Below the pieces are notes generated by a model, which was given only the letters and a program-made list of their open reading frames with translations, made no database searches and was not told the origin of the DNA. Positions 19,180 to 64,000 of a stretch of DNA of 64,000 nucleotides are shown here, in pieces. Numbering within the stretch: position 1 is the stretch's first letter; each line of letters begins with the position of its first letter. This DNA comes from Tubiluchus corallicola (lineage: Eukaryota; Animalia; Priapulida). The stretch spans positions 62,001-126,000 of the forward strand of contig JAQGDQ010000555.1 in NCBI GenBank assembly GCA_030141605.1, read 5' to 3'. A program made the position numbers and the translations under genes.

Positions 19180-20873
19180 TTCAAGATTCAAGATTCAAGA
19201 GTTTTATTCATTTTCCACATTGCATCATTACAATTAGCATTAAAATACAGATAATTTTCCATTTGAGTAAATATAAATATAAATATGAATAAATGCAATA
19301 TTATTAAGAAATTTCATAATGCGGGATATACATGTGCAAATTTCATTACAGAATAATTTTTTGATGCATACAGTTTGAGCCTAAAAGCATAGCTTGACAG
19401 GCCAAACTGTATGTGGAAATCTTAAAAAAAATGGGGGGGGAGTAGTGAATGAAAGATGAAATGGAGCGAGAAACTAAGAAAAACTGTGATCATGGTTACA
19501 AAGTGTTCAGTATCCTGTTAAACATAGTCACGTTATATTAAGATTACTGTAGCAAAAAATGCAGGTTATTACCATTATCAAATTGTGTTACTCTTCAATA
19601 CTTTTGAAATATTTCTTTTCTGACGGTTTTTTTAAAAGTTAAAAGGGAGTGACTACATTTCGAATTGCGGCTTAGTCTGTTCCATAGGACTGGCCCCATA
19701 TAGCTGATGAAGTGTTTCGCCATATTTGTTCTACAACGTCTTGGTATATATTCATTATGTCTGGTATTGTATTTTTTTACATTTATCTTGACTGGATTTT
19801 CAAAAAAAGTTGGAAATAAGTTGTTGTTGGTTCTATACATGTATATACATCCATTAAAATTAATAACATCATCCAGAAGTAATATTTGACATTGCTTAAA
19901 ATGTGTAGTAGTAATTGTGCTCCTTTTGTCTAGTTTGAAGATGACACGTAAAAATTTTCGTTGTAAAACTCTTAAGCATTCTAAATTTGTAGTATAAGTA
20001 AAGCCCCATAATGTTGTGCAGTAATTTAAATATGATAATATTAAACTGTTGTATAATGTTAGAAGATGTTCGGTGTTCAGAAAGTTTTTAATATATGAGA
20101 TGATACCTATATTTTTTGATATTTTTAATCTGATCATGAATATATGTGGTCGCCAGTCTAAATGCTCATTCAGTATTAATCCCAGAAATTTCAGTTCTTT
20201 TACACGTGTAATTCTTTTATGGTCTATTATTAAATCGTGGTTCGCCTGAATTGGTTTATTTCGGGATCTAAACAGAATGTATTTTGTTTTTGATGAATTT
20301 AGTGAAAGTTTATTTGTTTTGAACCATATTGCTAGATCATGTAGAACTGTATTTATGTAGTCAATATTGGTTTCTATTTTATGAAAGCTAAAAAAAATGC
20401 TTGTATCATCAGCAAACTGAAATAAATTGTGATTTTTAACACAACATTTGATGTCATTAATATAAATTAGAAAAAGTAGTGGCCCGAGGACTGAGCCTTG
20501 GGGCATGCCACATTTGATTGTTGTTACATCTGAAAAAGCGTTATTATATTTTACTGTCTGAGTGCGCCCTGTTAAATAATTCTTTAGCCACATATGAGGC
20601 AAACCTCTGATACCGTAATAGTACAACTTATTTAGCAGAATGTCATGATTTACTGCATCAAATGCTTTTGATAGGTCGCAAAATACTCCGTAGGATGTGC
20701 CATTTTTTTCAACAGTATTAATGATATTTTCTATAATTTTTCTTAAGGCCATTTCAGTGGAGCTACCTTTTCTGAAACCAAATTGTTTATTACTCAGAAT
20801 TCTTTTTTTTATTAAATAATGAGATAACTGATTGTAAAAAACTTTTTCTAATATTTTTGATATAAAAGTACTT
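19180..20873 (-). mobile_element. 5'-truncated CR1/L2-group LINE with RT ORF (19595-20752 and further upstream) and (TCTTGAA)3 tail
   Basis: RT motifs QFGFRKG, DLSKAFD, GMPQGSVLGPLLFLIYIND and FADDT; 3' UTR ends in three TTCAAGA copies at 19180-19200. Confidence 0.92.
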
Positions 20874-21945
20874 CTATATGTAACCTGGGTGTGAGTCTCT
20901 TCTAGAAGGACATATCTCCTATTTGCTAGTGCTTTCCTTCTAGATAATTTTCAGAAGGCGTCGGTGCGACATGGTATGGTAAACGGACATTTTATTATTA
21001 TTATTATTTACTAATTTCTAACGAGTGGCTTCGCTTGTAAGTGCAACAGTTTGAAATTATTTTACAACGCACATATAACTTACATAACTTTCCCTTAATG
21101 TAAACAATCTAGATATAACGCTTACCCACGAAGCTGGAAATGAAAAGAATATATGATGTTAGATATCAAATCCATTTCCTGGTGGCAACAATGCGAGAAT
21201 TAATCCGCAATCTTATCAGTTATGGTTGCTTGCTTTCAGAAATACAGATCCGTACAATTCCTACTTTTTAATGTAAAGGCGGATACTTACTTCTATGCGA
21301 TGCTTTCACACAATATCAGAGCAGTGTTACGCACTTTAGTTAGTTCCATACTAGTTGGTGATTAAATCCATTTTTGGTACTTCAGGTAATAGCAAGACGG
21401 GAAATCATAAAAAGTATTACGAACGGAAAAATACAGAAAGCAATATGGCTTTCAAGACTGTTTCACGACTTCGAAGAGTGAAACTATGCGAACCTTATCG
21501 TATGTTGATGAAAATTATTATTATCATAACTTAAAGGAAACAGGCAATCATACAACATCGTACCAATTACCGCTGTATCACCTGTCAGCCAATTGTAAAT
21601 CATGTTTGAGAAGGAACCACAACCCAGTTTAACAGGTTGCAGAGTATTCATCTAGATTGACGGGAATTTGTGTCACACACTCTCTCTCTCCCTTTGTTTT
21701 TAATAAATGCAATATTATGCATGCTGTTTTTACAAAGATATTATTAATTTTTACTATGCAAATAAATCTAGTCTAATGTTAATGACTTTTGCCTGTGTTT
21801 TGGCTAACTGTAATAATTACAAAGGTTTTGTTTCAGTTATGTGTTATTTCAAACATTCTGCTTTGTTTGCTAAAATATTGAAGAATATAGCACATGCGTA
21901 TTATCATAATGATTTGTGAGCCTCCTATAATATTGTAACGGATCC

Positions 21946-31815: not shown

Positions 31816-32012
31816 GATATGTGCTGATGTTTTTTTTAATTTTGTAAACTGACATTACTACCTGTGTAGAACTTTTCAAGTAGAATGTGCGGGGGGTGTC
31901 GACTGACTAAAGTCACAAAGTCACCAAATTCATACTGGTGCAATTAATTTGAGAGAACCAATGAGTTGGTATTGGCTGTTGATGCACTGATCTCTTGTTT
32001 AATCAATTTCAG

Positions 32013-32175
32013 GTTTAAGTTGAATGTCTGGGACGTCGGTGGACAAAAGTCTCTGAGGTCTTACTGGCGTAATTATTTTGAGAGCACCGACGGGTTGATA
32101 TGGGTTGTTGACAGTGCCGATCGACGTCGACTTGGCGATTGTAAGAAAGAACTGCATTCATTACTTGTAGAAGAG
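32013..32175 (+). CDS. ARL2: ARL2 coding exon 3 (163 bp)
   Basis: [36 protein letters not shown]...LLVEE; TTTCAG acceptor and GTGAG donor. Confidence 0.96.
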
Positions 32176-32514
32176 GTGAGTTATCCTAGCAATGGCCTAT
32201 TTGCTTGGAAAGGGTCTTTAGAAGCTCGTGTTCAATACTGTAATTGTCTGTGCTCACTTATTTAGGATTTCTGTTAGTTTGTACTATTCATGTATCTTTA
32301 AATGTTTGGTTGTTTTACGTTCAAAATGGATTATCAAATAATCCCTTAGTAGAACAGTGAAAATGCAGGGTGCTCCAAGCCAGTGGCAGCTTGTGTATAG
32401 GTACTGTGGAACTACAGCTTTCCCTATTCTCTCTTGACATTATCAGTAATATTCAATATGATAAGATCTACTCTTCTTTAATTCCTTCTTTCTGCTTCTA
32501 TGGAACCAGAGCAC

Positions 32515-42730: not shown

Positions 42731-43795
42731 TTGTATGTCAGAATAGCTACCTCCTATATTTTTGTTCTTCTAAACCATGAGGTTGTATGTCAGAATGGCT
42801 GTCTTCTACATTTTAGTTCTTCTAAACCACGAGGTTGTATGTCAGAATGGCTACCTTCTACATTTTAGTTCTTCTAAACCATGAGGTTGTATGTCAGAAT
42901 GGCTGTCTTCTACATTTAGTTCTTCTAAACCACGAGGTTGTATGTCAGAATGGCTACCTTCTACATTTTAGTTCTTCTAAACCATGAGGTTGTATGTCAG
43001 AATGGCTACCTCCTATATTTTTGTTCTTCTAAACCACGAGGTTGTATGTCAGAATGGCTGTCTTCTACATTTTAGTTCTTCTAAACCACGAGGTTGTATG
43101 TCAGAATGGCTACCTTCTACATTTTAGTTCTTCTGAACCATGAGGTTGTATGTCAGAATGGCTGTCTTCTACATTTTAGTTCTTCTAAACCACGAGGCTG
43201 TATGTCAGAATGGCTACCTTCTACATTTTAGTTCTTCTAAACCACGAGGTTGTATGTCAGAATGGCTGTCTTCTACATTTTAGTTCTTCTAAACCATGAG
43301 GTTGTATGTCAGAATGGCTGTCTTCTACATTTTAGTTCTTCTAAACCACGAGGTTGTATGTCAGAATGGCTACCTTCTACATTTTAGTTCTTCAAAACCA
43401 CGAGGTTGTATGTCAGAATGGCTATCTTCTACATTTTAGTTCTTCTAAACCACGAGGTTGTGTGTCAGAATGGCTGTCTTCTACATTTTAGTTCTGCTAA
43501 ACCACGAGGTTGTGTGTCAGAATGGCTACCTTCTACACTTTAGTTCTTCAAAACCACGAGGTTGTATGTCAGAATGGCTGTCTTCTACATTTTAGTTCTT
43601 CTAAACCACGAGGTTGTATGTCAGAATGGCTACCTTCTACATTTTAGTTCTTCAAAACCACGAGGTTGTATGTCAGAATGGCTATCTTCTACATTTTAGT
43701 TCTTCTAAACCACGAGGTTGTGTGTCAGAATGGCTGTCTTCTACATTTTAGTTCTGCTAAACCACGAGGTTGTGTGTCAGAATGGCTACCTTCTA
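42731..43795. repeat. 52-bp satellite array, left arm, about 20 copies
   Basis: Unit GTTGTATGTCAGAATGGCTACCTTCTACATTTTAGTTCTTCTAAACCACGAG; the array ends at CCTTCTA. Confidence 0.96.
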
Positions 43796-43934
43796 TTTTA
43801 TTATTATTTATTTATTGACCATGGTCAAAGATATATACAAAAAGTCATAAGAATCGTTTCGAGATAGTTGCAACATTTAAGAAATTTGGGCTGATCATAG
43901 TCCATAGATCACTCAATGTATGGTGTAGTAACAA

Positions 43935-45434
43935 TTAGAGACCAAAAATGGCTAGAGCATCGTGTACAAAATTACAAATATCAGCGGGATTTCCGCTGAA
44001 GAAAGTCACTAAATCATCAAATATTAAATCGGAATTGTTTCTTAAGATACGTGTTTCAGGGCATTCACATATTACGTGCAGTTCTGTTTGGATTTGTCCA
44101 CATGAACAGAGTCTTCGCTCTCTTTCAATACGGGACCAACGACCAGTTTCTATGGCAAGGTTGTGTGAGGAAAGTCTGAGCCTTGACGTTTTTATCCGTT
44201 TCAGTTCATTAACATTGTCACAGTAAATTCGATGGATAGAGAGTTCAGGGTTTAGTTGTAAGTATGTGACAAATTTCGTACGGTCAGAAGCGCGGGTCCT
44301 ATCTTTGATTCTATTCAGGTCATCATCGATAAAATCACCACGGTATCCAGTTATATTACGCAAATATCGAGCACATGGGGTGTTTGACTCGCGACACAAA
44401 TTGTAAACAATCATAAACGGATCATCAGGAATATTCACTCTTGAGCGAACACTCTTATTGAAAAAGCGAGATTGGGTGTCCTTCACAAAACCATTCAGGG
44501 AGGGAAGGCCCAACTCTATGAGACACAAATCATTAGCAGTTGTACGTCGCACACCGAGTAAACATTTGATAACACTAATATACATCCCTTGAATAGGATT
44601 AAGGTCATTGAATAGCCAAGACTCACATCCGTAAGTAATTGCAGCAAGTAGCGCGGCATTTAAAACTAACTTCTTAACTGCGAAAGGATAAGCTGAATTC
44701 TTAGAAATAAATGACACGAACTTCAGTACGTGACAATATTTGTCTTCGCAGTGTTTTTCCAGAGCGGGTTTAAATTTTCCTGTTGAGCTAAAGACAGCAC
44801 CGAGGTAAACGTAATAGTCACAGTGATTAACAGTAAGGGGGTTCACTACGAGGTCCAGACGATCAACAGCATCGCCATTAATAACCATAAATTTAGTCTT
44901 TTTTAAGTTCACCTTCATACCGGATTGATCACAGAACTCAATAAGGATACTGAGTTTTTGAATAATACCTTCTCTAGATGTTGACAATAAGATTGTATCA
45001 TCCATCAACATCAAACAGTGTAAATTTCCTAGGAAACCATCGAGACCACATCGAGACTTTAATTCACGAATAAGAGGGTTAATATACAGTGTGAAGAGGA
45101 AACAGGATGACGGAGAACCCTGCTTCACACCTAATGTAACACCAATAACGGCAGCACCAAGGACCAGCTGCGTATTCACATACATGGCAGCAAGAGCAGA
45201 AAGCATCACAAGACGACAGCCAAGAGCTCTCAAGGCCCTAATCAAACCAGAACGTGGAACTCTATCGTAAGCTTTCGAGAAGTCTACGAAAACGATATAT
45301 AATTTCCTCTTTTTAAACAGTGCATAGTCCATTAATAGTCTTAGAGTCACAATCCACTCAATGCAGGATCTACCCTTTTGGGCGCCAGCCTGCTCCCTAT
45401 CGGGTTTGAACCACATCTCTAAACGAAAAAACAA
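43935..45434 (-). CDS. Non-LTR retrotransposon RT and C-terminal domain, 5'-truncated with no endonuclease, copy 1
   Basis: EQAG, FVDFSKAYDRV, GVKQG, LMDDT, YLG and C-terminal HNLAIETGRW..C.C..E.H...C motifs; the frame opens without an ATG. Confidence 0.93.
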   Translation of the reverse strand: MFFRLEMWFKPDREQAGAQKGRSCIEWIVTLRLLMDYALFKKRKLYIVFVDFSKAYDRVPRSGLIRALRALGCRLVMLSALAAMYVNTQLVLGAAVIGVTLGVKQGSPSSCFLFTLYINPLIRELKSRCGLDGFLGNLHCLMLMDDTILLSTSREGIIQKLSILIEFCDQSGMKVNLKKTKFMVINGDAVDRLDLVVNPLTVNHCDYYVYLGAVFSSTGKFKPALEKHCEDKYCHVLKFVSFISKNSAYPFAVKKLVLNAALLAAITYGCESWLFNDLNPIQGMYISVIKCLLGVRRTTANDLCLIELGLPSLNGFVKDTQSRFFNKSVRSRVNIPDDPFMIVYNLCRESNTPCARYLRNITGYRGDFIDDDLNRIKDRTRASDRTKFVTYLQLNPELSIHRIYCDNVNELKRIKTSRLRLSSHNLAIETGRWSRIERERRLCSCGQIQTELHVICECPETRILRNNSDLIFDDLVTFFSGNPADICNFVHDALAIFGL

Positions 45435-45454
45435 GTTATAGTGTTTTGATATAA

Positions 45455-46966
45455 TTATAGTTCATCTTCTGATCTTTTGGCACATTCTTTCATTTCTATA
45501 CTTTCTCCTTGAACTGCGTTTTTGTTTTTAATCTTGAATCTGATCAACTTGTACCCAATCCAAATGAGCAAAGAATTCACCTCAATACACGTGATTACCG
45601 TCATTAGCCATAGCCAATCTTTCGCAGAAGAGTAATCTTCATACCAGGCTAATGGTTCCATTTCGTGGTGAGAAATAAGTAGTGCATGAGTTTTGTTAAT
45701 TAAAGCATTTATCTCGTCGGTATAAGTAGTTAGATTATGGCTCTCCAATTTAGGTATCCAACTTTTCACCCGGTGGAGAGAATCACTACATTTGAGAAAA
45801 TATCCAGGGAGATGATACTCATTAGCTTTCTTGCATGTTAGCACAAGACTAGTGTTCTTGGGAATAATCTTTTCTGATGCTCCTGTATATCTTGATACTG
45901 TTCTTAATGAATAACTAGCCTGTCTTTGAACTAGCCACCCACCCATTAATGTAACTACTCCCCAACTTTCTGGCGACCTTTCATATTTGATAGATTGGTC
46001 AAACGGTTGGGTTTCCAAATAAGTTGGGCATACAATTACATTAAGATCTTGGCAAGATCCAGGAGGAATAATTTTAATTTCATTTATTCCCAAAATCATG
46101 TTGAATGCGTTTCCGTGGACAACCCAAGTTCCTCCTTTGACGATTGGCACATTCTGTGTCTTTACATGTACTTTGCCAGGCACTTGGATGATTTCTCTGA
46201 CATTGATTAACATCCACAGTCTTCGTGGCTCAGATTTAATGACTATAGCCCGGCTAGCTCCATAGGATAGCGGGATGCTGTTCTTTTGGTCAGACATGAG
46301 AGAATGAAACTGGGTGGGACTGATCAGTAGGGGGTCTATTTTTGAAGAGGTGATAGATTGTAGGCCATGTCCATATCGGATAGAATTTAAATAGTCGTGA
46401 AGTTTCTTCATGTCGTTAGCGTGTGCCATCATCAGGTTATGTACATTAGCATCTAACTTGCCAACAATTCTCTCTAACTCTTCTAGATCGTGGCCTAGGA
46501 TACCTATTTCTTTATTAGCTATTTCCAGTTCATGTGCTATTATCCCTTGATTGTTTCTTAATTCCCCCATTTTCTTATTTAATGAATTTATTTCTGCCCT
46601 GTTTGTAGCGCCTAAGGCTAAAGCAGCAGTCGCCTCTGCCATAGCTGCGCTGGACATAATTAATCCGAGAAATCGTTTTTTCCTGTTATTATGGGTTGAA
46701 GAATTATCTTTTTCTCGAAACTGAAAGAGATCGTAATGAATATTCCAGGCCCGGGACATATCGACTCTAACAACTTTGAAAGATTGTGCCACTTGATACC
46801 CAATGGGTTTTGGTTCTGTAATTATAATGCCATAAGACGCCAAGGCATCTTGATGTTTGTAGATTATATCTTGCGATAATTGTGGAATAATACTATTTAC
46901 ACTTATTATGGTTCCATAAGTAACAGCTGAAAGAACAAGAAGGATTGAAAGAGTATAATGACCCAT
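45455..46966 (-). CDS. Class I viral fusion glycoprotein (paramyxo/pneumo F-like), 503 aa, endogenous viral element copy 1
   Basis: Signal peptide, furin site RKKR followed by hydrophobic FLGLIMSSAAMAEATAALALG, long heptad repeat, Cys-containing head, N-glycosylation sequons, C-terminal TM and short tail; intronless. Confidence 0.85.
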   Translation of the reverse strand: MGHYTLSILLVLSAVTYGTIISVNSIIPQLSQDIIYKHQDALASYGIIITEPKPIGYQVAQSFKVVRVDMSRAWNIHYDLFQFREKDNSSTHNNRKKRFLGLIMSSAAMAEATAALALGATNRAEINSLNKKMGELRNNQGIIAHELEIANKEIGILGHDLEELERIVGKLDANVHNLMMAHANDMKKLHDYLNSIRYGHGLQSITSSKIDPLLISPTQFHSLMSDQKNSIPLSYGASRAIVIKSEPRRLWMLINVREIIQVPGKVHVKTQNVPIVKGGTWVVHGNAFNMILGINEIKIIPPGSCQDLNVIVCPTYLETQPFDQSIKYERSPESWGVVTLMGGWLVQRQASYSLRTVSRYTGASEKIIPKNTSLVLTCKKANEYHLPGYFLKCSDSLHRVKSWIPKLESHNLTTYTDEINALINKTHALLISHHEMEPLAWYEDYSSAKDWLWLMTVITCIEVNSLLIWIGYKLIRFKIKNKNAVQGESIEMKECAKRSEDEL

Positions 46967-46971
46967 TTTGA

Positions 46972-47495
46972 CTTCTACATTTTAGTTCTTCAAAACCACG
47001 AGGTTGTATGTCAGAATGGCTATCTTCTACATTTTAGTTCTTCTAAACCACGAGGTTGTATGTCAGAATGGCTACCTCCTATATTTTTGTTCTTCAAAAC
47101 CATGAGGTTGTATGTCAGAATGGCTACCTTCTACATTTTAGTTCTTCTAAACCACGAGGTTGTATGTCAGAATGGCTATCTTCTACATTTTAGTTCTTCT
47201 AAACCACGAGGTTGTATGTCAGAATGGCTATCTTCTACATTTTAGTTCTTCTAAACCACGAGGTTGTATGTCAGAATGGCTCTTCTACATTTTAGTTCTG
47301 CTAAACCACGAGGTTGTATGTCAGAATGGCTATCTTCTACATTTTAGTTCTTCAAAACCACGAGGTTGTATGTCAGAATGGCTATCTTCTACATTTTAGT
47401 TCTTCTAAACCACGAGGTTGTGTGTCAGAATGGCTGTCTTCTACATTTTAGTTCTGCTAAACCACGAGGTTGTGTGTCAGAATGGCTACCTTCTA
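46972..47495. repeat. 52-bp satellite spacer 1 (10 units)
   Basis: Same unit; 524 bp = 10x52 + 6-bp TSD - a 2-bp deletion. Confidence 0.95.
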
Positions 47496-47634
47496 TTTTA
47501 TTATTATTTATTTATTGACCATGGTCAAAGATATATACAAAAAGTCATAAGAATCGTTTCGAGATAGTTGCAACATTTAAGAAATTTGGGCTGATCATAG
47601 TCCATAGATCACTCAATGTATGGTGTAGTAACAA

Positions 47635-49134
47635 TTAGAGACCAAAAATGGCTAGAGCATCGTGTACAAAATTACAAATATCAGCGGGATTTCCGCTGAA
47701 GAAAGTCACTAAATCATCAAATATTAAATCGGAATTGTTTCTTAAGATACGTGTTTCAGGGCATTCACATATTACGTGCAGTTCTGTTTGGATTTGTCCA
47801 CATGAACAGAGTCTTCGCTCTCTTTCAATACGGGACCAACGACCGGTTTCTATGGCAAGGTTGTGTGAGGAAAGTCTGAGCCTTGACGTTTTTATCCGTT
47901 TCAGTTCATTAACATTGTCACAGTAAATTCGATGGATAGAGAGTTCAGGGTTTAGTTGTAAGTATGTGACAAATTTCGTACGGTCAGAAGCGCGGGTCCT
48001 ATCTTTGATTCTATTCAGGTCATCATCGATAAAATCACCACGGTATCCAGTTATATTACGCAAATATCGAGCACATGGGGTGTTTGACTCGCGACACAAA
48101 TTGTAAACAATCATAAACGGATCATCAGGAATATTCACTCTTGAGCGAACAATCTTATTGAAAAAGCGAGATTGGGTGTCCTTCACAAAACCATTCAGGG
48201 AGGAAAGGCCCAACTCTATGAGACACAAATCATTAGCAGTTGTACGTCGCACACCGAGTAAACATTTGATAACACTAATATACATCCCTTGAATAGGATT
48301 AAGGTCATTGAATAGCCAAGACTCACATCCGTAAGTAATTGCAGCAAGTAGCGCGGCATTTAAAACTAACTTCTTAACTGCGAAAGGATAAGCTGAATTC
48401 TTAGAAATAAATGACACGAACTTCAGTACGTGACAATATTTGTCTTCGCAGTGTTTTTCCAGAGCGGGTTTAAATTTTCCTGTTGAGCTAAAGACAGCAC
48501 CGAGGTAAACGTAATAGTCACAGTGATTAACAGTAAGGGGGTTCACTACGAGGTCCAGACGATCAACAGCATCGCCATTAATAACCATAAATTTAGTCTT
48601 TTTTAAGTTCACCTTCATACCGGATTGATCACAGAACTCAATAAGGATACTGAGTTTTTGAATAATACCTTCTCTAGATGTTGACAATAAGATTGTATCA
48701 TCCATCAACATCAAACAGTGTAAATTTCCTAGGAAACCATCGAGACCACATCTAGACTTTAATTCACGAATAAGAGGGTTAATATACAGTGTGAAGAGGA
48801 AACAGGATGACGGAGAACCCTGCTTCACACCTAATGTAACACCAATAACGGCAGCACCAAGGACCAGCTGCGTATTCACATACATGGCAGCAAGAGCAGA
48901 AAGCATCACAAGACGACAGCCAAGAGCTCTCAAGGCCCTAATCAAACCAGAACGTGGAACTCTATCGTAAGCTTTCGAGAAGTCTACGAAAACGATATAT
49001 AATTTCCTCTTTTTAAACAGTGCATAGTCCATTAATAGTCTTAGAGTCACAATCCACTCAATGCAGGATCTACCCTTTTGGGCGCCAGCCTGCTCCCTAT
49101 CGGGTTTGAACCACATCTCTAAACGAAAAAACAA
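47635..49134 (-). CDS. 5'-truncated LINE RT, copy 2 (insert 47496-50671)
   Basis: Differs from copy 1 by two amino acids; offset exactly 3700 bp. Confidence 0.93.
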   Translation of the reverse strand: MFFRLEMWFKPDREQAGAQKGRSCIEWIVTLRLLMDYALFKKRKLYIVFVDFSKAYDRVPRSGLIRALRALGCRLVMLSALAAMYVNTQLVLGAAVIGVTLGVKQGSPSSCFLFTLYINPLIRELKSRCGLDGFLGNLHCLMLMDDTILLSTSREGIIQKLSILIEFCDQSGMKVNLKKTKFMVINGDAVDRLDLVVNPLTVNHCDYYVYLGAVFSSTGKFKPALEKHCEDKYCHVLKFVSFISKNSAYPFAVKKLVLNAALLAAITYGCESWLFNDLNPIQGMYISVIKCLLGVRRTTANDLCLIELGLSSLNGFVKDTQSRFFNKIVRSRVNIPDDPFMIVYNLCRESNTPCARYLRNITGYRGDFIDDDLNRIKDRTRASDRTKFVTYLQLNPELSIHRIYCDNVNELKRIKTSRLRLSSHNLAIETGRWSRIERERRLCSCGQIQTELHVICECPETRILRNNSDLIFDDLVTFFSGNPADICNFVHDALAIFGL

Positions 49135-49154
49135 GTTATAGTGTTTTGATATAA

Positions 49155-50666
49155 TTATAGTTCATCTTCTGATCTTTTGGCACATTCTTTCATTTCTATA
49201 CTTTCTCCTTGAACTGCGTTTTTGTTTTTAATCTTGAATCTGATCAACTTGTACCCAATCCAAATGAGCAAAGAATTCACCTCAATACACGTGATTACCG
49301 TCATTAGCCATAGCCAATCTTTCGCAGAAGAGTAATCTTCATACCAGGCTAATGGTTCCATTTCGTGGTGAGAAATAAGTAGTGCATGAGTTTTGTTAAT
49401 TAAAGCATTTATCTCGTCGGTATAAGTAGTTAGATTATGGCTCTCCAATTTAGGTATCCAACTTTTCACCCGGTGGAGAGAATCACTACATTTGAGAAAA
49501 TATCCAGGGAGATGATACTCATTAGCTTTCTTGCATGTTAGCACAAGACTAGTGTTCTTGGGAATAATCTTTTCTGATGCTCCTGTATATCTTGATACTG
49601 TTCTTAATGAATAACTAGCCTGTCTTTGAACTAGCCACCCACCCATTAATGTAACTACTCCCCAACTTTCTGGCGACCTTTCATATTTGATAGATTGGTC
49701 AAACGGTTGGGTTTCCAAATAAGTTGGGCATACAATTACATTAAGATCTTGGCAAGATCCAGGAGGAATAATTTTAATTTCATTTATTCCCAAAATCATG
49801 TTGAATGCGTTTCCGTGGACAACCCAAGTTCCTCCTTTGACGATTGGCACATTCTGTGTCTTTACATGTACTTTGCCAGGCACTTGGATGATTTCTCTGA
49901 CATTGATTAACATCCACAGTCTTCGTGGCTCAGATTTAATGACTATAGCCCGGCTAGCTCCATAGGATAGCGGGATGCTGTTCTTTTGGTCAGACATGAG
50001 AGAATGAAACTGGGTGGGACTGATCAGTAGGGGGTCTATTTTTGAAGAGGTGATAGATTGTAGGCCATGTCCATATCGGATAGAATTTAAATAGTCGTGA
50101 AGTTTCTTCATGTCGTTAGCGTGTGCCATCATCAGGTTATGTACATTAGCATCTAACTTGCCAACAATTCTCTCTAACTCTTCTAGATCGTGGCCTAGGA
50201 TACCTATTTCTTTATTAGCTATTTCCAGTTCATGTGCTATTATCCCTTGATTGTTTCTTAATTCCCCCATTTTCTTATTTAATGAATTTATTTCTGCCCT
50301 GTTTGTAGCGCCTAAGGCTAAAGCAGCAGTCGCCTCTGCCATAGCTGCGCTGGACATAATTAATCCGAGAAATCGTTTTTTCCTGTTATTATGGGTTGAA
50401 GAATTATCTTTTTCTCGAAACTGAAAGAGATCGTAATGAATATTCCAGGCCCGGGACATATCGACTCTAACAACTTTGAAAGATTGTGCCACTTGATACC
50501 CAATGGGTTTTGGTTCTGTAATTATAATGCCATAAGACGCCAAGGCATCTTGATGTTTGTAGATTATATCTTGCGATAATTGTGGAATAATACTATTTAC
50601 ACTTATTATGGTTCCATAAGTAACAGCTGAAAGAACAAGAAGGATTGAAAGAGTATAATGACCCAT
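49155..50666 (-). CDS. Viral F-like fusion glycoprotein, copy 2
   Basis: Protein identical to copy 1. Confidence 0.85.
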   Translation of the reverse strand: MGHYTLSILLVLSAVTYGTIISVNSIIPQLSQDIIYKHQDALASYGIIITEPKPIGYQVAQSFKVVRVDMSRAWNIHYDLFQFREKDNSSTHNNRKKRFLGLIMSSAAMAEATAALALGATNRAEINSLNKKMGELRNNQGIIAHELEIANKEIGILGHDLEELERIVGKLDANVHNLMMAHANDMKKLHDYLNSIRYGHGLQSITSSKIDPLLISPTQFHSLMSDQKNSIPLSYGASRAIVIKSEPRRLWMLINVREIIQVPGKVHVKTQNVPIVKGGTWVVHGNAFNMILGINEIKIIPPGSCQDLNVIVCPTYLETQPFDQSIKYERSPESWGVVTLMGGWLVQRQASYSLRTVSRYTGASEKIIPKNTSLVLTCKKANEYHLPGYFLKCSDSLHRVKSWIPKLESHNLTTYTDEINALINKTHALLISHHEMEPLAWYEDYSSAKDWLWLMTVITCIEVNSLLIWIGYKLIRFKIKNKNAVQGESIEMKECAKRSEDEL

Positions 50667-50671
50667 TTTGA

Positions 50672-51195
50672 CTTCTACATTTTAGTTCTTCAAAACCACG
50701 AGGTTGTATGTCAGAATGGCTATCTTCTACATTTTAGTTCTTCTAAACCACGAGGTTGTATGTCAGAATGGCTACCTCCTATATTTTTGTTCTTCAAAAC
50801 CATGAGGTTGTATGTCAGAATGGCTACCTTCTACATTTTAGTTCTTCTAAACCACGAGGTTGTATGTCAGAATGGCTATCTTCTACATTTTAGTTCTTCT
50901 AAACCACGAGGTTGTATGTCAGAATGGCTATCTTCTACATTTTAGTTCTTCTAAACCACGAGGTTGTATGTCAGAATGGCTCTTCTACATTTTAGTTCTG
51001 CTAAACCACGAGGTTGTATGTCAGAATGGCTATCTTCTACATTTTAGTTCTTCAAAACCACGAGGTTGTATGTCAGAATGGCTATCTTCTACATTTTAGT
51101 TCTTCTAAACCACGAGGTTGTGTGTCAGAATGGCTGTCTTCTACATTTTAGTTCTGCTAAACCACGAGGTTGTGTGTCAGAATGGCTACCTTCTA
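50672..51195. repeat. 52-bp satellite spacer 2 (10 units)
   Basis: Same variant order as spacer 1. Confidence 0.95.
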
Positions 51196-51334
51196 TTTTA
51201 TTATTATTTATTTATTGACCATGGTCAAAGATATATACAAAAAGTCATAAGAATCGTTTCGAGATAGCTGCAACATTTAAGAAATTTGGGCTGATCATAG
51301 TCCATAGATCACTCAATGTATGGTGTAGTAACAA

Positions 51335-52834
51335 TTAGAGACCAAAAATGGCTAGAGCATCGTGTACAAAATTACAAATATCAGCGGGATTTCCGCTGAA
51401 GAAAGTCACTAAATCATCAAATATTAAATCGGAATTGTTTCTTAAGATACGTGTTTCAGGGCATTCACATATTACGTGCAGTTCTGTTTGGATTTGTCCA
51501 CATGAACAGAGTCTTCGCTCTCTTTCAATACGGGACCAACGACCGGTTTCTATGGCAAGGTTGTGTGAGGAAAGTCTGAGCCTTGACGTTTTTATCCGTT
51601 TCAGTTCATTAACATTGTCACAGTAAATTCGATGGATAGAGAGTTCAGGGTTTAGTTGTAAGTATGTGACAAATTTCGTACGGTCAGAAGCGCGGGTCCT
51701 ATCTTTGATTCTATTCAGGTCATCATCGATAAAATCACCACGGTATCCAGTTATATTACGCAAATATCGAGCACATGGGGTGTTTGACTCGCGACACAAA
51801 TTGTAAACAATCATAAACGGATCATCAGGAATATTCACTCTTGAGCGAACAATCTTATTGAAAAAGCGAGATTGGGTGTCCTTCACAAAACCATTCAGGG
51901 AGGGAAGGCCCAACTCTATGAGACACAAATCATTAGCAGTTGTACGTCGCACACCGAGTAAACATTTGATAACACTAATATACATCCCTTGAATAGGATT
52001 AAGGTCATTGAATAGCCAAGACTCACATCCGTAAGTAATTGCAGCAAGTAGCGCGGCATTTAAAACTAACTTCTTAACTGCGAAAGGATAAGCTGAATTC
52101 TTAGAAATAAATGACACGAACTTCAGTACGTGACAATATTTGTCTTCGCAGTGTTTTTCCAGAGCGGGTTTAAATTTTCCTGTTGAGCTAAAGACAGCAC
52201 CGAGGTAAACGTAATAGTCACAGTGATTAACAGTAAGGGGGTTCACTACGAGGTCCAGACGATCAACAGCATCGCCATTAATAACCATAAATTTAGTCTT
52301 TTTTAAGTTCACCTTCATACCGGATTGATCACAGAACTCAATAAGGATACTGAGTTTTTGAATAATACCTTCTCTAGATGTTGACAATAAGATTGTATCA
52401 TCCATCAACATCAAACAGTGTAAATTTCCTAGGAAACCATCGAGACCACATCTAGACTTTAATTCACGAATAAGAGGGTTAATATACAGTGTGAAGAGGA
52501 AACAGGATGACGGAGAACCCTGCTTCACACCTAATGTAACACCAATAACGGCAGCACCAAGGACCAGCTGCGTATTCACATACATGGCAGCAAGAGCAGA
52601 AAGCATCACAAGACGACAGCCAAGAGCTCTCAAGGCCCTAATCAAACCAGAACGTGGAACTCTATCGTAAGCTTTCGAGAAGTCTACGAAAACGATATAT
52701 AATTTCCTCTTTTTAAACAGTGCATAGTCCATTAATAGTCTTAGAGTCACAATCCACTCAATGCAGGATCTACCCTTTTGGGCGCCAGCCTGCTCCCTAT
52801 CGGGTTTGAACCACATCTCTAAACGAAAAAACAA
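51335..52834 (-). CDS. 5'-truncated LINE RT, copy 3 (insert 51196-54371)
   Basis: Near-identical to copies 1 and 2. Confidence 0.93.
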   Translation of the reverse strand: MFFRLEMWFKPDREQAGAQKGRSCIEWIVTLRLLMDYALFKKRKLYIVFVDFSKAYDRVPRSGLIRALRALGCRLVMLSALAAMYVNTQLVLGAAVIGVTLGVKQGSPSSCFLFTLYINPLIRELKSRCGLDGFLGNLHCLMLMDDTILLSTSREGIIQKLSILIEFCDQSGMKVNLKKTKFMVINGDAVDRLDLVVNPLTVNHCDYYVYLGAVFSSTGKFKPALEKHCEDKYCHVLKFVSFISKNSAYPFAVKKLVLNAALLAAITYGCESWLFNDLNPIQGMYISVIKCLLGVRRTTANDLCLIELGLPSLNGFVKDTQSRFFNKIVRSRVNIPDDPFMIVYNLCRESNTPCARYLRNITGYRGDFIDDDLNRIKDRTRASDRTKFVTYLQLNPELSIHRIYCDNVNELKRIKTSRLRLSSHNLAIETGRWSRIERERRLCSCGQIQTELHVICECPETRILRNNSDLIFDDLVTFFSGNPADICNFVHDALAIFGL

Positions 52835-52854
52835 GTTATAGTGTTTTGATATAA

Positions 52855-54366
52855 TTATAGTTCATCTTCTGATCTTTTGGCACATTCTTTCATTTCTATA
52901 CTTTCTCCTTGAACTGCGTTTTTGTTTTTAATCTTGAATCTGATCAACTTGTACCCAATCCAAATGAGCAAAGAATTCACCTCAATACACGTGATTACCG
53001 TCATTAGCCATAGCCAATCTTTCGCAGAAGAGTAATCTTCATACCAGGCTAATGGTTCCATTTCGTGGTGAGAAATAAGTAGTGCATGAGTTTTGTTAAT
53101 TAAAGCATTTATCTCGTCGGTATAAGTAGTTAGATTATGGCTCTCCAATTTAGGTATCCAACTTTTCACCCGGTGGAGAGAATCACTACATTTGAGAAAA
53201 TATCCAGGGAGATGATACTCATTAGCTTTCTTGCATGTTAGCACAAGACTAGTGTTCTTGGGAATAATCTTTTCTGATGCTCCTGTATATCTTGATACTG
53301 TTCTTAATGAATAACTAGCCTGTCTTTGAACTAGCCACCCACCCATTAATGTAACTACTCCCCAACTTTCTGGCGACCTTTCATATTTGATAGATTGGTC
53401 AAACGGTTGGGTTTCCAAATAAGTTGGGCATACAATTACATTAAGATCTTGGCAAGATCCAGGAGGAATAATTTTAATTTCATTTATTCCCAAAATCATG
53501 TTGAATGCGTTTCCGTGGACAACCCAAGTTCCTCCTTTGACGATTGGCACATTCTGTGTCTTTACATGTACTTTGCCAGGCACTTGGATGATTTCTCTGA
53601 CATTGATTAACATCCACAGTCTTCGTGGCTCAGATTTAATGACTATAGCCCGGCTAGCTCCATAGGATAGCGGGATGCTGTTCTTTTGGTCAGACATGAG
53701 AGAATGAAACTGGGTGGGACTGATCAGTAGGGGGTCTATTTTTGAAGAGGTGATAGATTGTAGGCCATGTCCATATCGGATAGAATTTAAATAGTCGTGA
53801 AGTTTCTTCATGTCGTTAGCGTGTGCCATCATCAGGTTATGTACATTAGCATCTAACTTGCCAACAATTCTCTCTAACTCTTCTAGATCGTGGCCTAGGA
53901 TACCTATTTCTTTATTAGCTATTTCCAGTTCATGTGCTATTATCCCTTGATTGTTTCTTAAGTCCCCCATTTTCTTATTTAATGAATTTATTTCTGCCCT
54001 GTTTGTAGCGCCTAAGGCTAAAGCAGCAGTCGCCTCTGCCATAGCTGCGCTGGACATAATTAATCCGAGAAATCGTTTTTTCCTGTTATTATGGGTTGAA
54101 GAATTATCTTTTTCTCGAAACTGAATGAGATCGTAATGAATATTCCAGGCCCGGGACATATCGACTCTAACAACTTTGAAAGATTGTGCCACTTGATACC
54201 CAATGGGTTTTGGTTCTGTAATTATAATGCCATAAGACGCCAAGGCATCTTGATGTTTGTAGATTATATCTTGCGATAATTGTGGAATAATACTATTTAC
54301 ACTTATTATGGTTCCATAAGTAACAGCTGAAAGAACAAGAAGGATTGAAAGAGTATAATGACCCAT
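52855..54366 (-). CDS. Viral F-like fusion glycoprotein, copy 3
   Basis: Two substitutions relative to copies 1 and 2 (YDLF>YDLI, MGEL>MGDL). Confidence 0.85.
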   Translation of the reverse strand: MGHYTLSILLVLSAVTYGTIISVNSIIPQLSQDIIYKHQDALASYGIIITEPKPIGYQVAQSFKVVRVDMSRAWNIHYDLIQFREKDNSSTHNNRKKRFLGLIMSSAAMAEATAALALGATNRAEINSLNKKMGDLRNNQGIIAHELEIANKEIGILGHDLEELERIVGKLDANVHNLMMAHANDMKKLHDYLNSIRYGHGLQSITSSKIDPLLISPTQFHSLMSDQKNSIPLSYGASRAIVIKSEPRRLWMLINVREIIQVPGKVHVKTQNVPIVKGGTWVVHGNAFNMILGINEIKIIPPGSCQDLNVIVCPTYLETQPFDQSIKYERSPESWGVVTLMGGWLVQRQASYSLRTVSRYTGASEKIIPKNTSLVLTCKKANEYHLPGYFLKCSDSLHRVKSWIPKLESHNLTTYTDEINALINKTHALLISHHEMEPLAWYEDYSSAKDWLWLMTVITCIEVNSLLIWIGYKLIRFKIKNKNAVQGESIEMKECAKRSEDEL

Positions 54367-54371
54367 TTTGA

Positions 54372-54739
54372 CTTCTACATTTTAGTTCTTCAAAACCACG
54401 AGGTTGTATGTCAGAATGGCTATCTTCTACATTTTAGTTCTTCTAAACCACGAGGTTGTATGTCAGAATGGCTACCTCCTATATTTTTGTTCTTCAAAAC
54501 CATGAGGTTGTATGTCAGAATGGCTACCTTCTACATTTTAGTTCTTCTAAACCACGAGGTTGTATGTCAGAATGGCTATCTTCTACATTTTAGTTCTTCT
54601 AAACCACGAGGTTGTATGTCAGAATGGCTATCTTCTACATTTTAGTTCTTCTAAACCACGAGGTTGTATGTCAGAATGGCTCTTCTACATTTTAGTTCTG
54701 CTAAACCACGAGGTTGTATGTCAGAATGGCTACCTTCTA
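54372..54739. repeat. 52-bp satellite spacer 3 (7 units), ending at CCTTCTA
   Basis: 368 bp = 7x52 + 6 - 2. Confidence 0.95.
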
Positions 54740-54745
54740 TGCAAT

Positions 54746-55813
54746 TTATGCAATTTTGAAATTGGTCGTGGTTGTTTGGAATTCATCATCACTGTCTTCG
54801 ATATACTTGTTTCCTACTGTGTGTCTGGTTACTTGATCCCTTTGAAAGTTTGCTCTTTCTATGGAGAGGTTTTCCATTGCCTGTCTTACATCTTCAGAGC
54901 CCTCATTTCTCGCCGCTGTAGCGGCTTCTCTTCTGATGATTTTTCCTAGCTGTTTCGCGAATTCGTCGATTGTTGGGGAAACATCAGGCTTTTTATATTG
55001 CCAAACACTGTATCGAGGGTCGTTTGTGTTATCCTTATCGGAAATGATGTGCAATAATACTGTTGTGAGTACTCTGTTATTGTTAGTACTTATGTTGGTG
55101 AATGCATTTTGGTTAAAGTTTTTGGCGTACAAATAGGATTTGTCGGGTCTCCCAACACAAGTTTGCCAGAACCTTTGGAGCCGGAGCAACTCTTTTATAG
55201 TCCATGAGCACCCTATTTTCTTTAACAACTCATTTCTGTCCAGTTTTGTAGACTCTGTGGCTTGTGCTAACAATTGGGGAAGTGTAAGTGAGGCCCACGT
55301 TAGGTGTCTCATTACAGCAAAGTTTACATACCGATAGAGTTCTTCTCCCCGACCAGTTATCCTTCCGCTCCTTACACAAAGCCCAAACGTCATAAGCGCT
55401 GTTGCGCAGACCTCCGGACGTGAAAACACTGTATAGTAAGCATTCCATAGTGACTCGTTGACTTTGAGTCCTAGTGGCCTATAATTCCACATCATTGAAT
55501 TCTCAGTTTCTTCACTCAGTACTTTGTTTCTTACTTGTTTCGATTTGCCTGCCGCTCGAGTGAGAACCATTACAAGAAAACATATTGAGTCTAATTCCCA
55601 TTCGTAGATGTCGGTAGCTGCCGTTTCAAAATAACTGTCGACTTTTTCCCACACCTCAATGATGTCGTTGGTCATGACATCTGGTGATCGTTGAGGAAGT
55701 TTAGATAGTTCATGGAGTAATTTGCCTGTGTCACCATCTGATCCGGAGGTTCCAGGCTCTAGATCTTCTCCCTTTGATCCAGCATTCAATTTGGCATAGC
55801 TGCCCAAAGTCAT
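54746..55813 (-). CDS. Putative mononegavirus (rhabdo-like) nucleoprotein, about 355 aa, endogenous viral element
   Basis: Intronless, helical-looking protein from ATG 55813 (MTLGSY). SYLYAKNFNQNAFTNISTNNNRVLTTVL resembles the YAR..D..F..L....N motif of plant/invertebrate rhabdovirus-type N proteins; acidic tail EDSDDEF. Confidence 0.65.
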   Translation of the reverse strand: MTLGSYAKLNAGSKGEDLEPGTSGSDGDTGKLLHELSKLPQRSPDVMTNDIIEVWEKVDSYFETAATDIYEWELDSICFLVMVLTRAAGKSKQVRNKVLSEETENSMMWNYRPLGLKVNESLWNAYYTVFSRPEVCATALMTFGLCVRSGRITGRGEELYRYVNFAVMRHLTWASLTLPQLLAQATESTKLDRNELLKKIGCSWTIKELLRLQRFWQTCVGRPDKSYLYAKNFNQNAFTNISTNNNRVLTTVLLHIISDKDNTNDPRYSVWQYKKPDVSPTIDEFAKQLGKIIRREAATAARNEGSEDVRQAMENLSIERANFQRDQVTRHTVGNKYIEDSDDEFQTTTTNFKIA

Positions 55814-56070
55814 AGTTTTGTGTTGGAGCGGAAAGTCTTGCGAGAACTCATCACACAAATTATTACCAGGTGTTACACATTTTGGATCACGTACAGTATT
55901 ACCAGATGTTACACATTTTTTGCAAAAGACAAATTTACAATTATATGTAATAGTAAAACATATGTAACGAGCTACAAATTGGATTAGTACTATACAAGGA
56001 GAATGCATTACAGGATAAGATACATATTCACAATTATACGATAATAAAAATATATAAGGTAAGATTAGGT

Positions 56071-57257
56071 AGACATCAAACATTCGAGTTCGCCATTCTA
56101 CTGGTGTTTGCTAAAAGAAATTATTGAGTTTACTAAGAGGTTACTTTTTTATCTCACTAGTACACATTAGGGGTAAACATCAAACATTCCAGTTCGCCAT
56201 TCTACTGGTCTTTGCTAAAAGAAATTATTGAGTTTACTAAGGGGTTACTTTTTTATCTCATTAGTACACACTAGGGGTAAACATCAAACATTCGAGTTCG
56301 CCATTCTACTGGTGTTTGCTAAAAGAAATTATTGAATTATTAATGATTAGTTTTTATCAGCCGTGCTTTTGCTTAAGTCTCAACCTGGTGGAGTGACTCA
56401 AATCAAGCACAGTGTTCATGTTTACTGTCTAAAATATCGAAAATGAATTGAAAAACATGATTATTTTTCATATACACTTTTATACATAATTGTCAGATAT
56501 ATTTAAAATAAAATGGGGAAATGATGTTCAAAAACTTGCGCAACAGCTTGTTTTAAAATGCTGAAATTAATAAATAAAAACAATTTTTAATGACTGTTAG
56601 CTATGAGCTTATAGACTTTTGCGTCTAATTGTTTTAATCGCTCAATTAGCTTATCTATTAGATAAGCAGTTAACTCATTGTTGTGTATCAAATAAGAAAT
56701 CAAATCTTCGATAAACTGCACTTGTTCTTCCGTTAGTTAAATTTTCCGTGTAACTGCACACACATTAAAGATATTAAAATTTAGCTTACTTCGTTCGTAG
56801 AACGTTTTTCTCCTCCATTTTGTGGTTTAACATTGTACTTGAATTTTGGAGGAGAATATGCAGGTGGCGGTACTATATTAATTCGCCGTGGTATCATTAT
56901 ACGTTTCTTTCCTCTCTCTAAATAAAAAAATCGCACTTTTCTTTACTTGTGTCGCATGAAAACTAATTGAATGTCGCGTAGGGTGACGTCATAGAACCCT
57001 CGGCTGTTGCTCAGGACCAATCAGAGTTCGTAGCGTCACTCCCAACTTTTGCGTTATTATGCTTCCGGTTGCTATAGTAACCATTGTAGGTAAATTTGCC
57101 CTCCTGGTAAATCCTGTGAAATAAGACGAACAAAAAATCAAGTTTATTTTTGGTTACTTTGATTGAGTTTTAACGAACTTAATGCTGTGGAAATATAGTT
57201 CAAAAGCTGAATCTGACAGTGATAGTTTTTATTAAAATTCGATAAGCTTTCACACTA
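56071..57257. repeat. Locally duplicated block, copy A (contains an internal ~104-bp triplet at 56071-56335)
   Basis: Aligns by eye to 59040-60098, including TGACGTCA and CCAATCA motifs. Confidence 0.85.
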
Positions 57258-62200: not shown

Positions 62201-63704
62201 AATTTATCCCTGACTCTATCAAAGGAATTTGAAAAAGCGAAAACTCGACTTTTAACCGTTTCTACATCACAAGTCACGCAACATTGTGAATCTCAAGTAT
62301 TGATACTCTGCAAAACGGGCACTTACACTCCAAGTTTGCAAGCTTGTTTTTAGTGCAAGTTTGCAAGCATTGTTCAAAAAGTGCGTTGATTACAAAAAAC
62401 AACGAGGCTAAAATTTGTATGGACAAATCAAGGAAGAATCTTTATGAGAGCTAATGAAAAAATGGAATCCTTCGAAATAAAATGTGAAGAGGACTTAACC
62501 TAATTTGAACTGTTTCAGATTCTGATTATACTTATGCTCGTCTTTAACGCTAATCAAGTAAACAGGTATCTTTCTTATTTTAAGTTTCTTTGCCGTTTGT
62601 CAGATTGCCCGTTCGCCTAATACAGTTCACGTGTGTACTAATTGTGTGTGCATGCCTGCGGGTGTATGTATTATTCATAATTGTATGTATTATTCAAGTT
62701 TATATTGTATAAGTGAGCAAAAAATAGCTCACATTTTTTTGTATGATAACTAGAAACAGTTATCGGTACAGTCGTAATGCCTATGCAGGTTGGTACTGTA
62801 AGTGATTACAAAACTAAGGATACCACCGAGTAATAATTACAAACAGCTTAGTGTGGTTGAATGAAACCAGTTTTTTTTTGTCCGTATGTTAATTGATAAC
62901 CTTGACTACATGGGTAAATGGTCCAATGAATAAGCGATTCGTAAATGGTTGCGGACGAGATTTTGTCACGTATCAAGTATTTAATATATTAACCTGTTTA
63001 CAGAAACCGATTAACAGATTACCTTGAAGTGAAAACTTTAACGTACCTGGGCATAACCTATGACATTCACAGGTACGCTGCCTTGATTGCGAAATTGTAT
63101 TTTTTTACCAATGAATACACGAAGGGATTTTTTTGAACAAGCACTGTTAGACACTAAATGAAACGTGAGCGTGTAATATTTTTAATACAGAAGTGACTCC
63201 ATTTTTTATATGGCGAGACAGCTTAACGTAAATTTATGCTTAAATTCATGCTTAACTCCATATTAAATTTACCCCTTTTTAGAAAGATATGCATAAAAAA
63301 TAGTAACTTTGTTTCAATTTTCACTTATTAGCAACATGGATATATAATTAAACTGTATTAATCCTACGTACCGTGATTAGTTAATATCTGGCAAGTTATT
63401 TTCTGTCTATATATCATTAACAGTCAAATTTAAGTGGAACCATATTTCTAAATATGAGACTATTTTTGTGTACTTTAATGTATAATCAAAGAATTCATAC
63501 TACATCAGTAATCCAAAATACATGTGCAAATTATATGCTCCAGGATATATTAATTTGATAATTTGAAGCAATTATTTTATTTATCTTTTTTTAAATCAAA
63601 GTGGAAGATAGAGGCAAATAAGTCGGCCCTAATTACTACCTCAGTTTTTTTGTATTTTCTTTCTTTTTTAACAATTACTCACCCTCTTTAACTACATCAT
63701 TCAT

Positions 63705-64000
63705 ATGTTAACATTCTCATGTCCCGCTTGCGAGAAACCTGTTAAACATAACCAAAAGGCTCTAGGATGTGACAACTGTTATAGGTGGATTCACCTAAGA
63801 TGCTCACCGTTATCAGTTGACGATTATAATGACCTGGCTACAGATGATAATGAATGGTTTTGCCATCTTTGTCTACAGTCTATTTTTCCATTCAATAATA
63901 TACCAGATGATGAAGAATTTAAACATATTGCACGTTTTTCAAATATTGGTTCTATCTTGTGCGATTATAACTTAAATCTCTTTTGCGCTGAATCAGATGA
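63705..64000 (+). mobile_element. PHD-finger N-terminus of a CR1/L2-group LINE ORF, running off the window end
   Basis: MLTFSCPACEKPVKHNQKALGCDNCYRWIHLRC...WFCHLCLQSIFPFNNI: a C4HC3 PHD followed by the FPF motif seen in such LINEs. Confidence 0.75.

Follow-up and report, generated by a model that had tools for sequence, protein, structure and literature searches.

The closest described counterparts of the locus reported here are the U6/L1 chimeric retrogenes, in which the copy of a foreign RNA lies 5′ of a 5′-truncated LINE in the same orientation, with one target site duplication (TSD), the LINE tail and a run of T at the join (PMC6789731, PMC11838501). Both a template switch by the reverse transcriptase (RT) and RNA ligation yield such DNA (PMC11838501, whose main text contains neither the word virus nor the word viral). 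LINE-1 is able to copy VSV mRNA (PMC4038843), and the EBLN and filovirus-like endogenous viral elements (EVEs) made by LINE-1 in trans are monocistronic, TSD-bounded copies that end in the poly(A) of the mRNA (PMC3205384, PMC2987831). Most insect EVEs showed no hallmarks of LINEs (PMC2987831), and their origin is attributed to LTR elements (10.1101/127498). Viral RNA has also been joined to LTR retrotransposons during reverse transcription, as in the recombinants LCMV-IAP, FHV-LTR, and SINV/CFAV-Ty3 (PMC3205384, PMC5857290, PMC6797480, 10.1101/127498).

The stretch of DNA that we analysed (64,000 nucleotides; the window) carries an insert on the minus strand (46971–43796) that consists of 5 nt, an F-like ORF, 29 nt, a truncated LINE and an A-rich tail. 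The 5′ copy of the TSD, TAGAAG (46972–46977; CTTCTA on the plus strand), is followed by TCAAA (46967–46971) directly ahead of the ATG at 46966. The F-like ORF is intact and encodes 503 aa (45455–46966; stop codon at 45457–45455), and its 3′ UTR (45426–45454) ends in six T (T6) at the LINE junction; the cargo is thus almost exactly one ORF. The 5′-truncated LINE ORF2 has an open frame from the middle of the RT domain to a C-terminal Cys/His motif (43935–45425), and the LINE 3′ UTR (43817–43934, from the sequence and contigs) and tail (43796–43816) are retained. The 3′ copy of TAGAAG (43790–43795) is at the same time the start of a satellite unit. The F-like ORF and the LINE have the same orientation and a single TSD encloses both, while inspection of the insert sequence revealed no flanking duplication of the LINE part’s own. 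An earlier sequence-only reading had placed all of these parts correctly, although the tail that it gave as (TAA)n is 21 nt of mixed TAAA/TAA, the distance from the F stop to the LINE is 29 nt instead of about 20 nt, and the LINE part, given as about 1.64 kb, measures 1630 nt.

The architecture resembles that of U6/L1 retrogenes, from which it differs in that the cargo is a 1.5-kb virus-like ORF, the element is not L1, the genome does not look mammalian, and tandem amplification followed. As in the EBLN and filovirus-like EVEs, the cargo is a TSD-bounded monocistronic copy, likely of a mononegavirus mRNA; unlike those elements, neither F nor the neighbouring nucleoprotein-like gene (N) ends in poly(A), and 1.63 kb of the LINE itself is attached to F. 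The LTR recombinants likewise join viral RNA to a retroelement; here, however, that retroelement is of the non-LTR type and retains its tail and TSD.

In each of two runs (X1 and X4), public contigs depart from the window into full-length LINE at 45425, which places the LINE breakpoint there and not near 45430–45450, as previously proposed. Homology to full-length ORF2 proteins likewise starts at the codon of 45425 in all 40 relatives that were aligned out of the 120 matches listed. A-runs reach no more than 4 after the F stop and 1 after the N stop, and the scan for A-runs after the F stop found no poly(A) at the join. Since poly(A) is absent and six T occupy the junction, the template switch was not to an mRNA with its 3′ end intact, and the earlier suggestion that the RT jumped to a viral mRNA 3′ end was not borne out. 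The T6 could stem from an RNA that had been cut or deadenylated, from bases added without a template, or, as for U6/L1 (PMC6789731), from the ligation of RNAs. The LINE side of the join, the side that was read, offers no microhomology.

Two unbranched X1 contigs match the window without a single difference, one running from F into the LINE (45396–45833, 879x) and the other from F into the satellite (46194–47001, 865x). In both, the short side is 30 letters where the rule asks for 31, and the window may have been built from the X1 sample itself. Window-type LINE alleles occur at about 800–990x at four of the ten listed LINE places in X1, a depth similar to that of the F junction contigs, so F and this LINE copy occur together. 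None of the 8 (of 17) X4 pieces inspected spans the F-LINE junction, and runs X5 and X6, which bear the same species label as X1, gave two short LINE-like pieces of <90% identity or nothing. An X1 loose end at 43796, considered as a variant of N, proved to be a mix of two contigs.

The LINE ORF2 matches the RVT_1 profile (E = 1.3e-26). Its full-length relatives are about 1000 aa long and carry Exo_endo_phos, and the ORF2 of the insert starts at about residue 490–540 in most of those aligned. The endonuclease domain is absent from it, and the F-LINE unit is predicted from its sequence to be immobile on its own. The LINE is present in roughly 15–33 copies. Specificity of the LINE for the satellite was rejected, as other copies exit at the tail into non-satellite flanks (loose ends at 43794 and 43798). 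At least 7 differences in 1630, common to all three copies described below, separate the F-linked LINE from the X1 majority, on which basis we consider it young.

The insert lies in a 52-bp minisatellite, and a clean unit of this repeat reproduces the empty site. All its arrays read on the minus strand: 20.5 units lie downstream of the insert (42731–43795) and 7 units upstream, between N and F (54372–54739). The whole TSD-F-LINE-TSD unit is triplicated with a period of 3700 bp and 4–6 mismatches over 3188 bp, copy 2 (47490–50677) differing from copy 1 by 4 mismatches and copy 3 (51190–54377) by 6. The two intervening spacers, of 10 units (46972–47495 and 50672–51195), are identical to each other and are hybrids of the first 3 downstream-array units and upstream-array units. 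Because the copies share spacer variants base for base, the triplication is explained by tandem duplication. The assembly has 3 copies of F, whereas depth gives 4.2–4.8 when scaled to N and 5.8–6.6 when scaled to single flank alleles. The upstream satellite was rejected as a copy of the downstream one, from which variants A–E are absent, and the 52-mer, considered as viral sequence, has no match outside the array within the window. The units on either side of the insert, compared as former neighbours, differ by 2 mismatches, no better than several other pairs, in what is a weak test. The CTTCTA duplication reported around the insert is present at both ends; two random breakpoints in a 52-mer array, however, mimic a TSD of 2–20 bp with p about 0.37, which makes the TSD weaker evidence than it appears. 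The sequence-only reading mentioned neither the triplication, nor the neighbouring N-like ORF, nor the T6 junction lacking poly(A).

The F-like protein has, by hydropathy and motif scan, a signal-like stretch (residues 4–27), RKKR (95–98) and a hydrophobic peptide from residue 99, followed by a heptad repeat (123–199; 17 of 22 a/d positions hydrophobic) and a TM-like stretch (452–471); signal peptide, furin site, fusion peptide, heptad repeat and C-terminal TM, the features of class I F-type proteins, are thus all present. The Pfam Fusion_gly match falls below its cut-off (E = 0.005; 15.5 bits vs. 29.8), the best PDB match has E = 1.4, and the single-sequence structure model reaches a pLDDT of 33. 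Neither sequence relatives nor a source virus were found in the databases searched, and NCBIfam gave no relative. In Atlas, the top matches are Fusion_gly at 0.97, with a recognition of 1757, under the 2300 mark. We consider an RNA-virus origin of F likely on the strength of protein architecture, Atlas match and neighbouring N, as distinct from sequence homology.

An alternative that we hold to be doubtful is that F is an env of F type from an LTR element (a Ty3/gypsy errantivirus or another) and N an unrelated neighbour. Metazoan LTR elements widely carry such env genes, with furin site and fusion peptide, in multiple copies (PMC13524379), and F shares with errantivirus env the signal peptide, furin site, fusion peptide, TM and multiple copies. 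Atlas also matches F to Baculo_F clusters (0.95–0.96) and Gypsy env clusters (0.92), and diverged copies of F (~87–90%) exist at 6.7–10 equivalents by depth, with 28 of the 30 listed differences at third codon positions. Against this, Fusion_gly clusters of Negarnaviricota make up 13 of the 30 Atlas matches, the three best included, and no purine tract or LTR follows the F stop. Nowhere in the 64-kb window does F stand after gag-pol between LTRs as errantivirus env does, and the 49 other frames of at least 75 aa contain no gag, protease or integrase family. An N-like ORF on the same strand, 379 nt upstream of the third F copy, also speaks against env.

This nucleoprotein-like ORF (54746–55813, minus strand) is intact, encodes 355 aa and lies in one unbranched X1 contig. 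Residues 158–256 match Rhabdo_ncap_2 (E = 2.6e-6; 27.6 bits vs. a cut-off of 25), a Pfam family built on novirhabdovirus N. The match recalls invertebrate novirhabdo-like viruses, for which the available text describes no paramyxovirus-like F (10.1101/2024.12.15.628590). No relatives of N were found in the sequence databases searched or in NCBIfam; its single-sequence model has a pLDDT of 35, and its best Atlas and PDB matches stand at 0.75 and E = 0.13. N ends 6 nt before TAGAAG, meeting the satellite at the phase where the LINE tail does, with no LINE piece attached. The 192 nt upstream (55814–56005), between N and a host repeat cut at 56006, are probably the 5′ edge of the N insert, judging from an X4 loose end at 56006 and depth that rises from 55975; this side has no satellite and no TSD. 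N and F both have about 35% A. Codon usage does not link them (r 0.64, vs. 0.66 between F and a host zinc-finger frame), and no convincing gene-start or gene-end motif is common to both. Their adjacency hints that N and F may have been paired in one virus.

For the insert itself, we give roughly an even chance to a single retrotransposition in which the LINE RT, after copying 1.63 kb of LINE RNA, jumped onto a U-ended, non-polyadenylated, likely viral F RNA. A nick by the LINE endonuclease in the 52-bp satellite would have supplied the free end that primed on the A-rich tail. Copying would have halted about half-way through ORF2, at the breakpoint, and the cDNA would have continued on an F-sense RNA, with T6 representing either untemplated A on the cDNA or the oligo-U end of the RNA. 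Uridylation of viral RNA and untemplated additions by non-LTR RTs are both known. The copy ends 5 nt before the ATG, where TAGAAG bounds it, and unequal crossing-over of the flanking satellite arrays could then have produced the at least three tandem copies. An N RNA from this virus may have been copied by the same machinery into the satellite 370 bp upstream, at an identical phase. A single-event LINE-virus chimera had been proposed previously; orientation, one TSD, one-ORF cargo and one junction type fit that proposal, while its jump to an mRNA 3′ end is unsupported and its copying nearly to the cap, with no source virus found in the databases searched, is conjectural. With U6/L1 and other RNA/L1 chimeras as precedent (PMC11838501, PMC6789731), a single-event chimera followed by tandem duplication would by analogy be their viral counterpart.

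The same DNA would be expected if the two RNAs had been joined before reverse transcription, with a U-ended F RNA ligated, RtcB-style, to a 5′-cut LINE RNA and the product retrotransposed. The T6 followed by a 5′-truncated LINE has the form of U6/L1 junctions, which carry about 4–8 T (PMC6789731), and the ORFs of F and N contain no further T6 run. RtcB, however, requires a 2′,3′-cyclic phosphate (PMC6789731), and the route to such an end is hypothetical for F RNA; we regard ligation as unlikely. We judge equally improbable a succession of two insertions, in which F, lacking poly(A) as N does, integrated into the satellite and a 5′-truncated LINE later inserted at the T6-TAGAAG junction with a 0–1 bp duplication. 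N counts against the chimera here, as a virus-like RNA integrated at this satellite phase without a LINE, since F could have arrived likewise; the satellite target weakens the TSD argument, and an F-only allele would read as pyrimidines then an A-run on the plus strand, resembling the general L1 nick site consensus. A LINE of roughly 15–33 copies would nevertheless have had to strike exactly that base, and the X1 contig has no F-only branch into the satellite at 45426.

A mobile non-LTR element that carries a fusion gene is far less probable still. The depth of F, above the three assembled copies, and the diverged F copies would suit it, but the spacer variants shared base for base, the missing endonuclease half of ORF2, and a 5′ contig that runs unbranched into one satellite phase would not, and ordinary LINE copies continue 5′ as LINE, not as F, in the contigs. 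Near-identical F copies have one 5′ and one 3′ junction only (15 of 41 X1 loose ends), and hence no mobile F-LINE was seen; dispersed F-RT junctions with other TSDs, named beforehand as the sign of such an element, were absent among the contigs seen.

A search of titles and abstract openings, with most subscription journals outside its scope, found no earlier report of a cis LINE-viral RNA chimera, which is weak evidence of novelty, and RNA/LINE chimeras as such are already known. A young insertion with LINE, tail, join and TSD preserved names the responsible element directly, and the choice between template jump and RNA ligation becomes testable for viral RNA. The intact N-like and F-like genes, without relatives in the databases searched, point to an unsampled virus lineage. 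More speculatively, an undescribed negative-strand virus with a novirhabdovirus-like N and a class I F may have been captured twice in one germ-line episode, by one LINE family at the same minisatellite phase, the F copy being a virus/LINE chimeric retrogene with an oligo-U join that the satellite then amplified with all frames intact; the 7–10 diverged F copies would then reflect repeated captures. If this tentative scenario is true, LINEs would offer a recurrent route in cis by which decaying viral mRNA becomes endogenous viral elements of invertebrates.

The F-LINE unit occupies 46971-43796 on the minus strand, within an array of a 52-bp minisatellite. Read along that strand, satellite and TAGAAG (CTTCTA on the plus strand) are followed by 5 nt, the ATG of a 503-aa fusion-protein-like frame (F) at 46966, its stop at 45455 and a further 29 nt; the LINE part then comprises a reverse transcriptase (RT) frame to 43935, the 3′ UTR, a 21-nt A-rich tail, the second TAGAAG and satellite. 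The sequence-only reading had placed all of this inside one TAGAAG duplication, and every part can be read in the window; the gap it noted after the F stop also exists, at 29 nt rather than about 20. The insert is real, young and well preserved. TAGAAG occurs once per clean satellite unit, at the phase of the insert, so the repeat around the insert is a 6-bp duplication relative to the empty site. This duplication supports LINE insertion only modestly, since any two breakpoints in a 52-bp array mimic a duplication, its length lying anywhere from 0 to 51 bp, with 19 of the 52 phases yielding 2-20 bp.

Four public sequencing runs from two studies contain the stretch, among them X1, possibly the source sample, and X4, from another sample and study. 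The LINE part matches the Pfam profile RVT_1, and the proteins related to it are ORF2 sequences about 1000 aa long (224 matches at E<=1e-40, of which 120 were listed); all three that were scanned contain an endonuclease domain. Among the best 40 matches aligned, homology begins at codon 45425, about half-way along ORF2, and contigs of both X1 and X4 depart from the window at exactly that position, which sets the breakpoint at 45425/45426 and the length of LINE copied at 1630 nt. The sequence-only reading had placed the breakpoint near 45430-45450, which the contigs and ORF2 alignment correct. Past 45425, loose contig letters read by eye carry on a motif present in P0001 there. Depth suggests roughly 15-33 LINE copies; the 3′ flanks of other copies in run contigs differ from the 52-bp satellite, which rules out specificity for it. 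At 19595-20950 on the minus strand lies another LINE RT frame, different from the first (451 aa, RVT_1 E=2e-31), and host coding is represented by a C2H2 zinc-finger frame (14374-15609, minus), an Arf-family piece (31948-32262, plus) and a PHD-finger piece (63672-63998, plus).

The unit occurs three times in tandem, with a period of 3700 bp and 4-6 mismatches. The two satellite spacers are identical to each other, each consisting of the first three downstream-array units plus upstream-array units, with one unit differing by one base; this is the pattern that unequal crossing-over between the flanking arrays would predict. In X1, near-identical F runs unbranched into LINE (879x) and into satellite (865x), the shorter side of each junction contig being 30 letters, one under the bridging rule. 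Single flank alleles stand at 145-153x. The tandem copies are real, since F depth in X1 is 4.2-4.8 times that of the nucleoprotein-like frame N, or about 6 haploid equivalents, contig-derived depth being a rough guide only; F copies may exceed three, or the array may be present on both haplotypes. F pieces in X4 show 0-1 differences in 366-533 bp, and none of the 8 listed of 17 bridges the F-LINE join. The first copy has private bases at 44145, 44452 and 45053, where the X1 contigs listed carry only the letter of the other two; these may be assembly errors or variants lost from the contigs. Further locus-scale tandem arrays, with periods of 6-112 bp, are numerous in 1-38600 and 56068-56335, and minisatellites being this common speaks for the 52-mer having come from the host.

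Sequence database searches found no relative of F, and its match to Pfam Fusion_gly (E=0.005) is under the cut-off. It is organised like a class I F protein: the N-terminus is hydrophobic, RKKR (95-98) precedes a hydrophobic peptide, a heptad repeat has hydrophobic residues at 17 of its 22 a/d positions, and residues 452-471 resemble a TM segment. In the Atlas protein-cluster search, where its recognition value is under the tool's mark, the best three matches are Fusion_gly clusters (0.97), with Baculo_F and Gypsy env clusters coming next (0.92-0.96); structure prediction gave no usable fold. An RNA-virus origin is no more than likely, because the F-type env of LTR elements has the same layout, as PMC13524379 describes; that F is such an env is a minority reading, independent of how the insertion arose.

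The N frame (355 aa, intact, 55813-54746, minus) scores above the Rhabdo_ncap_2 cut-off. Sequence database searches found no relative, and Atlas, PDB and folding added no support. Located 379 nt upstream of the third F on the same strand, it stops 6 nt short of a TAGAAG in the satellite phase that the LINE tail also has, a coincidence with a chance of 1/52, or 1/4-1/5 counting TA sites alone. Neither poly(A) nor any LINE piece accompanies it, and its 5′ side lacks satellite, a host repeat there being cut at 56006. N forms one unbranched contig in X1 (205x), and its satellite junction is bridged in X4 with 2 differences in 470 bp. A 9-nt direct repeat across the stop codon (54738-54755, minus), reaching 2 nt into satellite, possibly reflects slippage at priming. 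Upstream of its ATG the frame continues without a stop for 99 codons (55814-56110, minus), and a sequence of about 23 nt is repeated once near 55860-55920. The satellite unit-to-unit joint at 54705-54739 has depth 4 against 10 for N in X4, and 4270 against 205 in X1; the X4 array may be short, or its library different.

The most economical reading is a single retrotransposition, with RT passing from LINE to F RNA, to which we give an even chance. After a nick in the satellite and priming on the LINE tail, RT would have copied 1630 nt of LINE and carried on along F-sense RNA; resolution would have left the 6-bp duplication, and tandem amplification would have come after insertion. The sequence-only reading had RT jumping to the 3′ end of an intact viral mRNA, which should have left poly(A), yet a sequence scan found none at the F-LINE join; a cut or deadenylated F template is more likely. 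The join is instead T6, the sole such run in the scanned F and N regions. It could reflect untemplated A added to the cDNA or, alternatively, a U-tail of the RNA; each kind of addition is a known activity. Ligation of F RNA to LINE RNA before reverse transcription would be a distinctly weaker candidate than the jump: U6/L1 chimeras of the same form can arise by RtcB joining of RNAs (PMC6789731), and chimera DNA does not separate the two routes (PMC11838501). Separate insertions of F and then LINE are just as improbable as ligation, and are conceivable because N, which may share the origin of the insert, was captured at the same phase without LINE. That F-LINE is itself a mobile element is very doubtful; near-identical F in X1 has one junction type (among 15 of 41 loose ends and 18 of 231 pieces listed). 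Some other mechanism has a similarly slim chance.

The insert works like a U6/L1-type chimeric retrogene, all three structural features tested being present. F and LINE may have arrived together, the X1 contig having no branch from F into satellite at 45426. EBLN-type copies end in poly(A) (PMC3205384, PMC2987831); the insert does not, and so is not of that type. Virus-retroelement recombinants have an LTR partner in the parts seen of PMC3205384, PMC5857290, PMC6797480 and 10.1101/127498, whereas here it is a LINE. Literature titles and abstract openings (partial coverage) yielded no cis LINE-virus chimera, and PMC8554740 contributed nothing further about them. VSV mRNA can be copied by LINE-1 (PMC4038843), and novirhabdo-like viruses are known from invertebrates (10.1101/2024.12.15.628590).

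One F-like contig in X1 omits 406 bp (46099-46506, 88x), and another departs into other sequence at 46663, near the cleavage site; broken F copies exist elsewhere in the T. corallicola genome. Diverged F, at about 87%, covers 45884-46189 and 46561-46637 in X1 and X4 and is deeper than the window's own F; the longest X1 piece, at 1374x, carries 40 differences over 306 bp. Of the 30 F differences listed, 28 fall at third codon positions. The diverged copies represent either more captures from related virus strains or an env-bearing element family.
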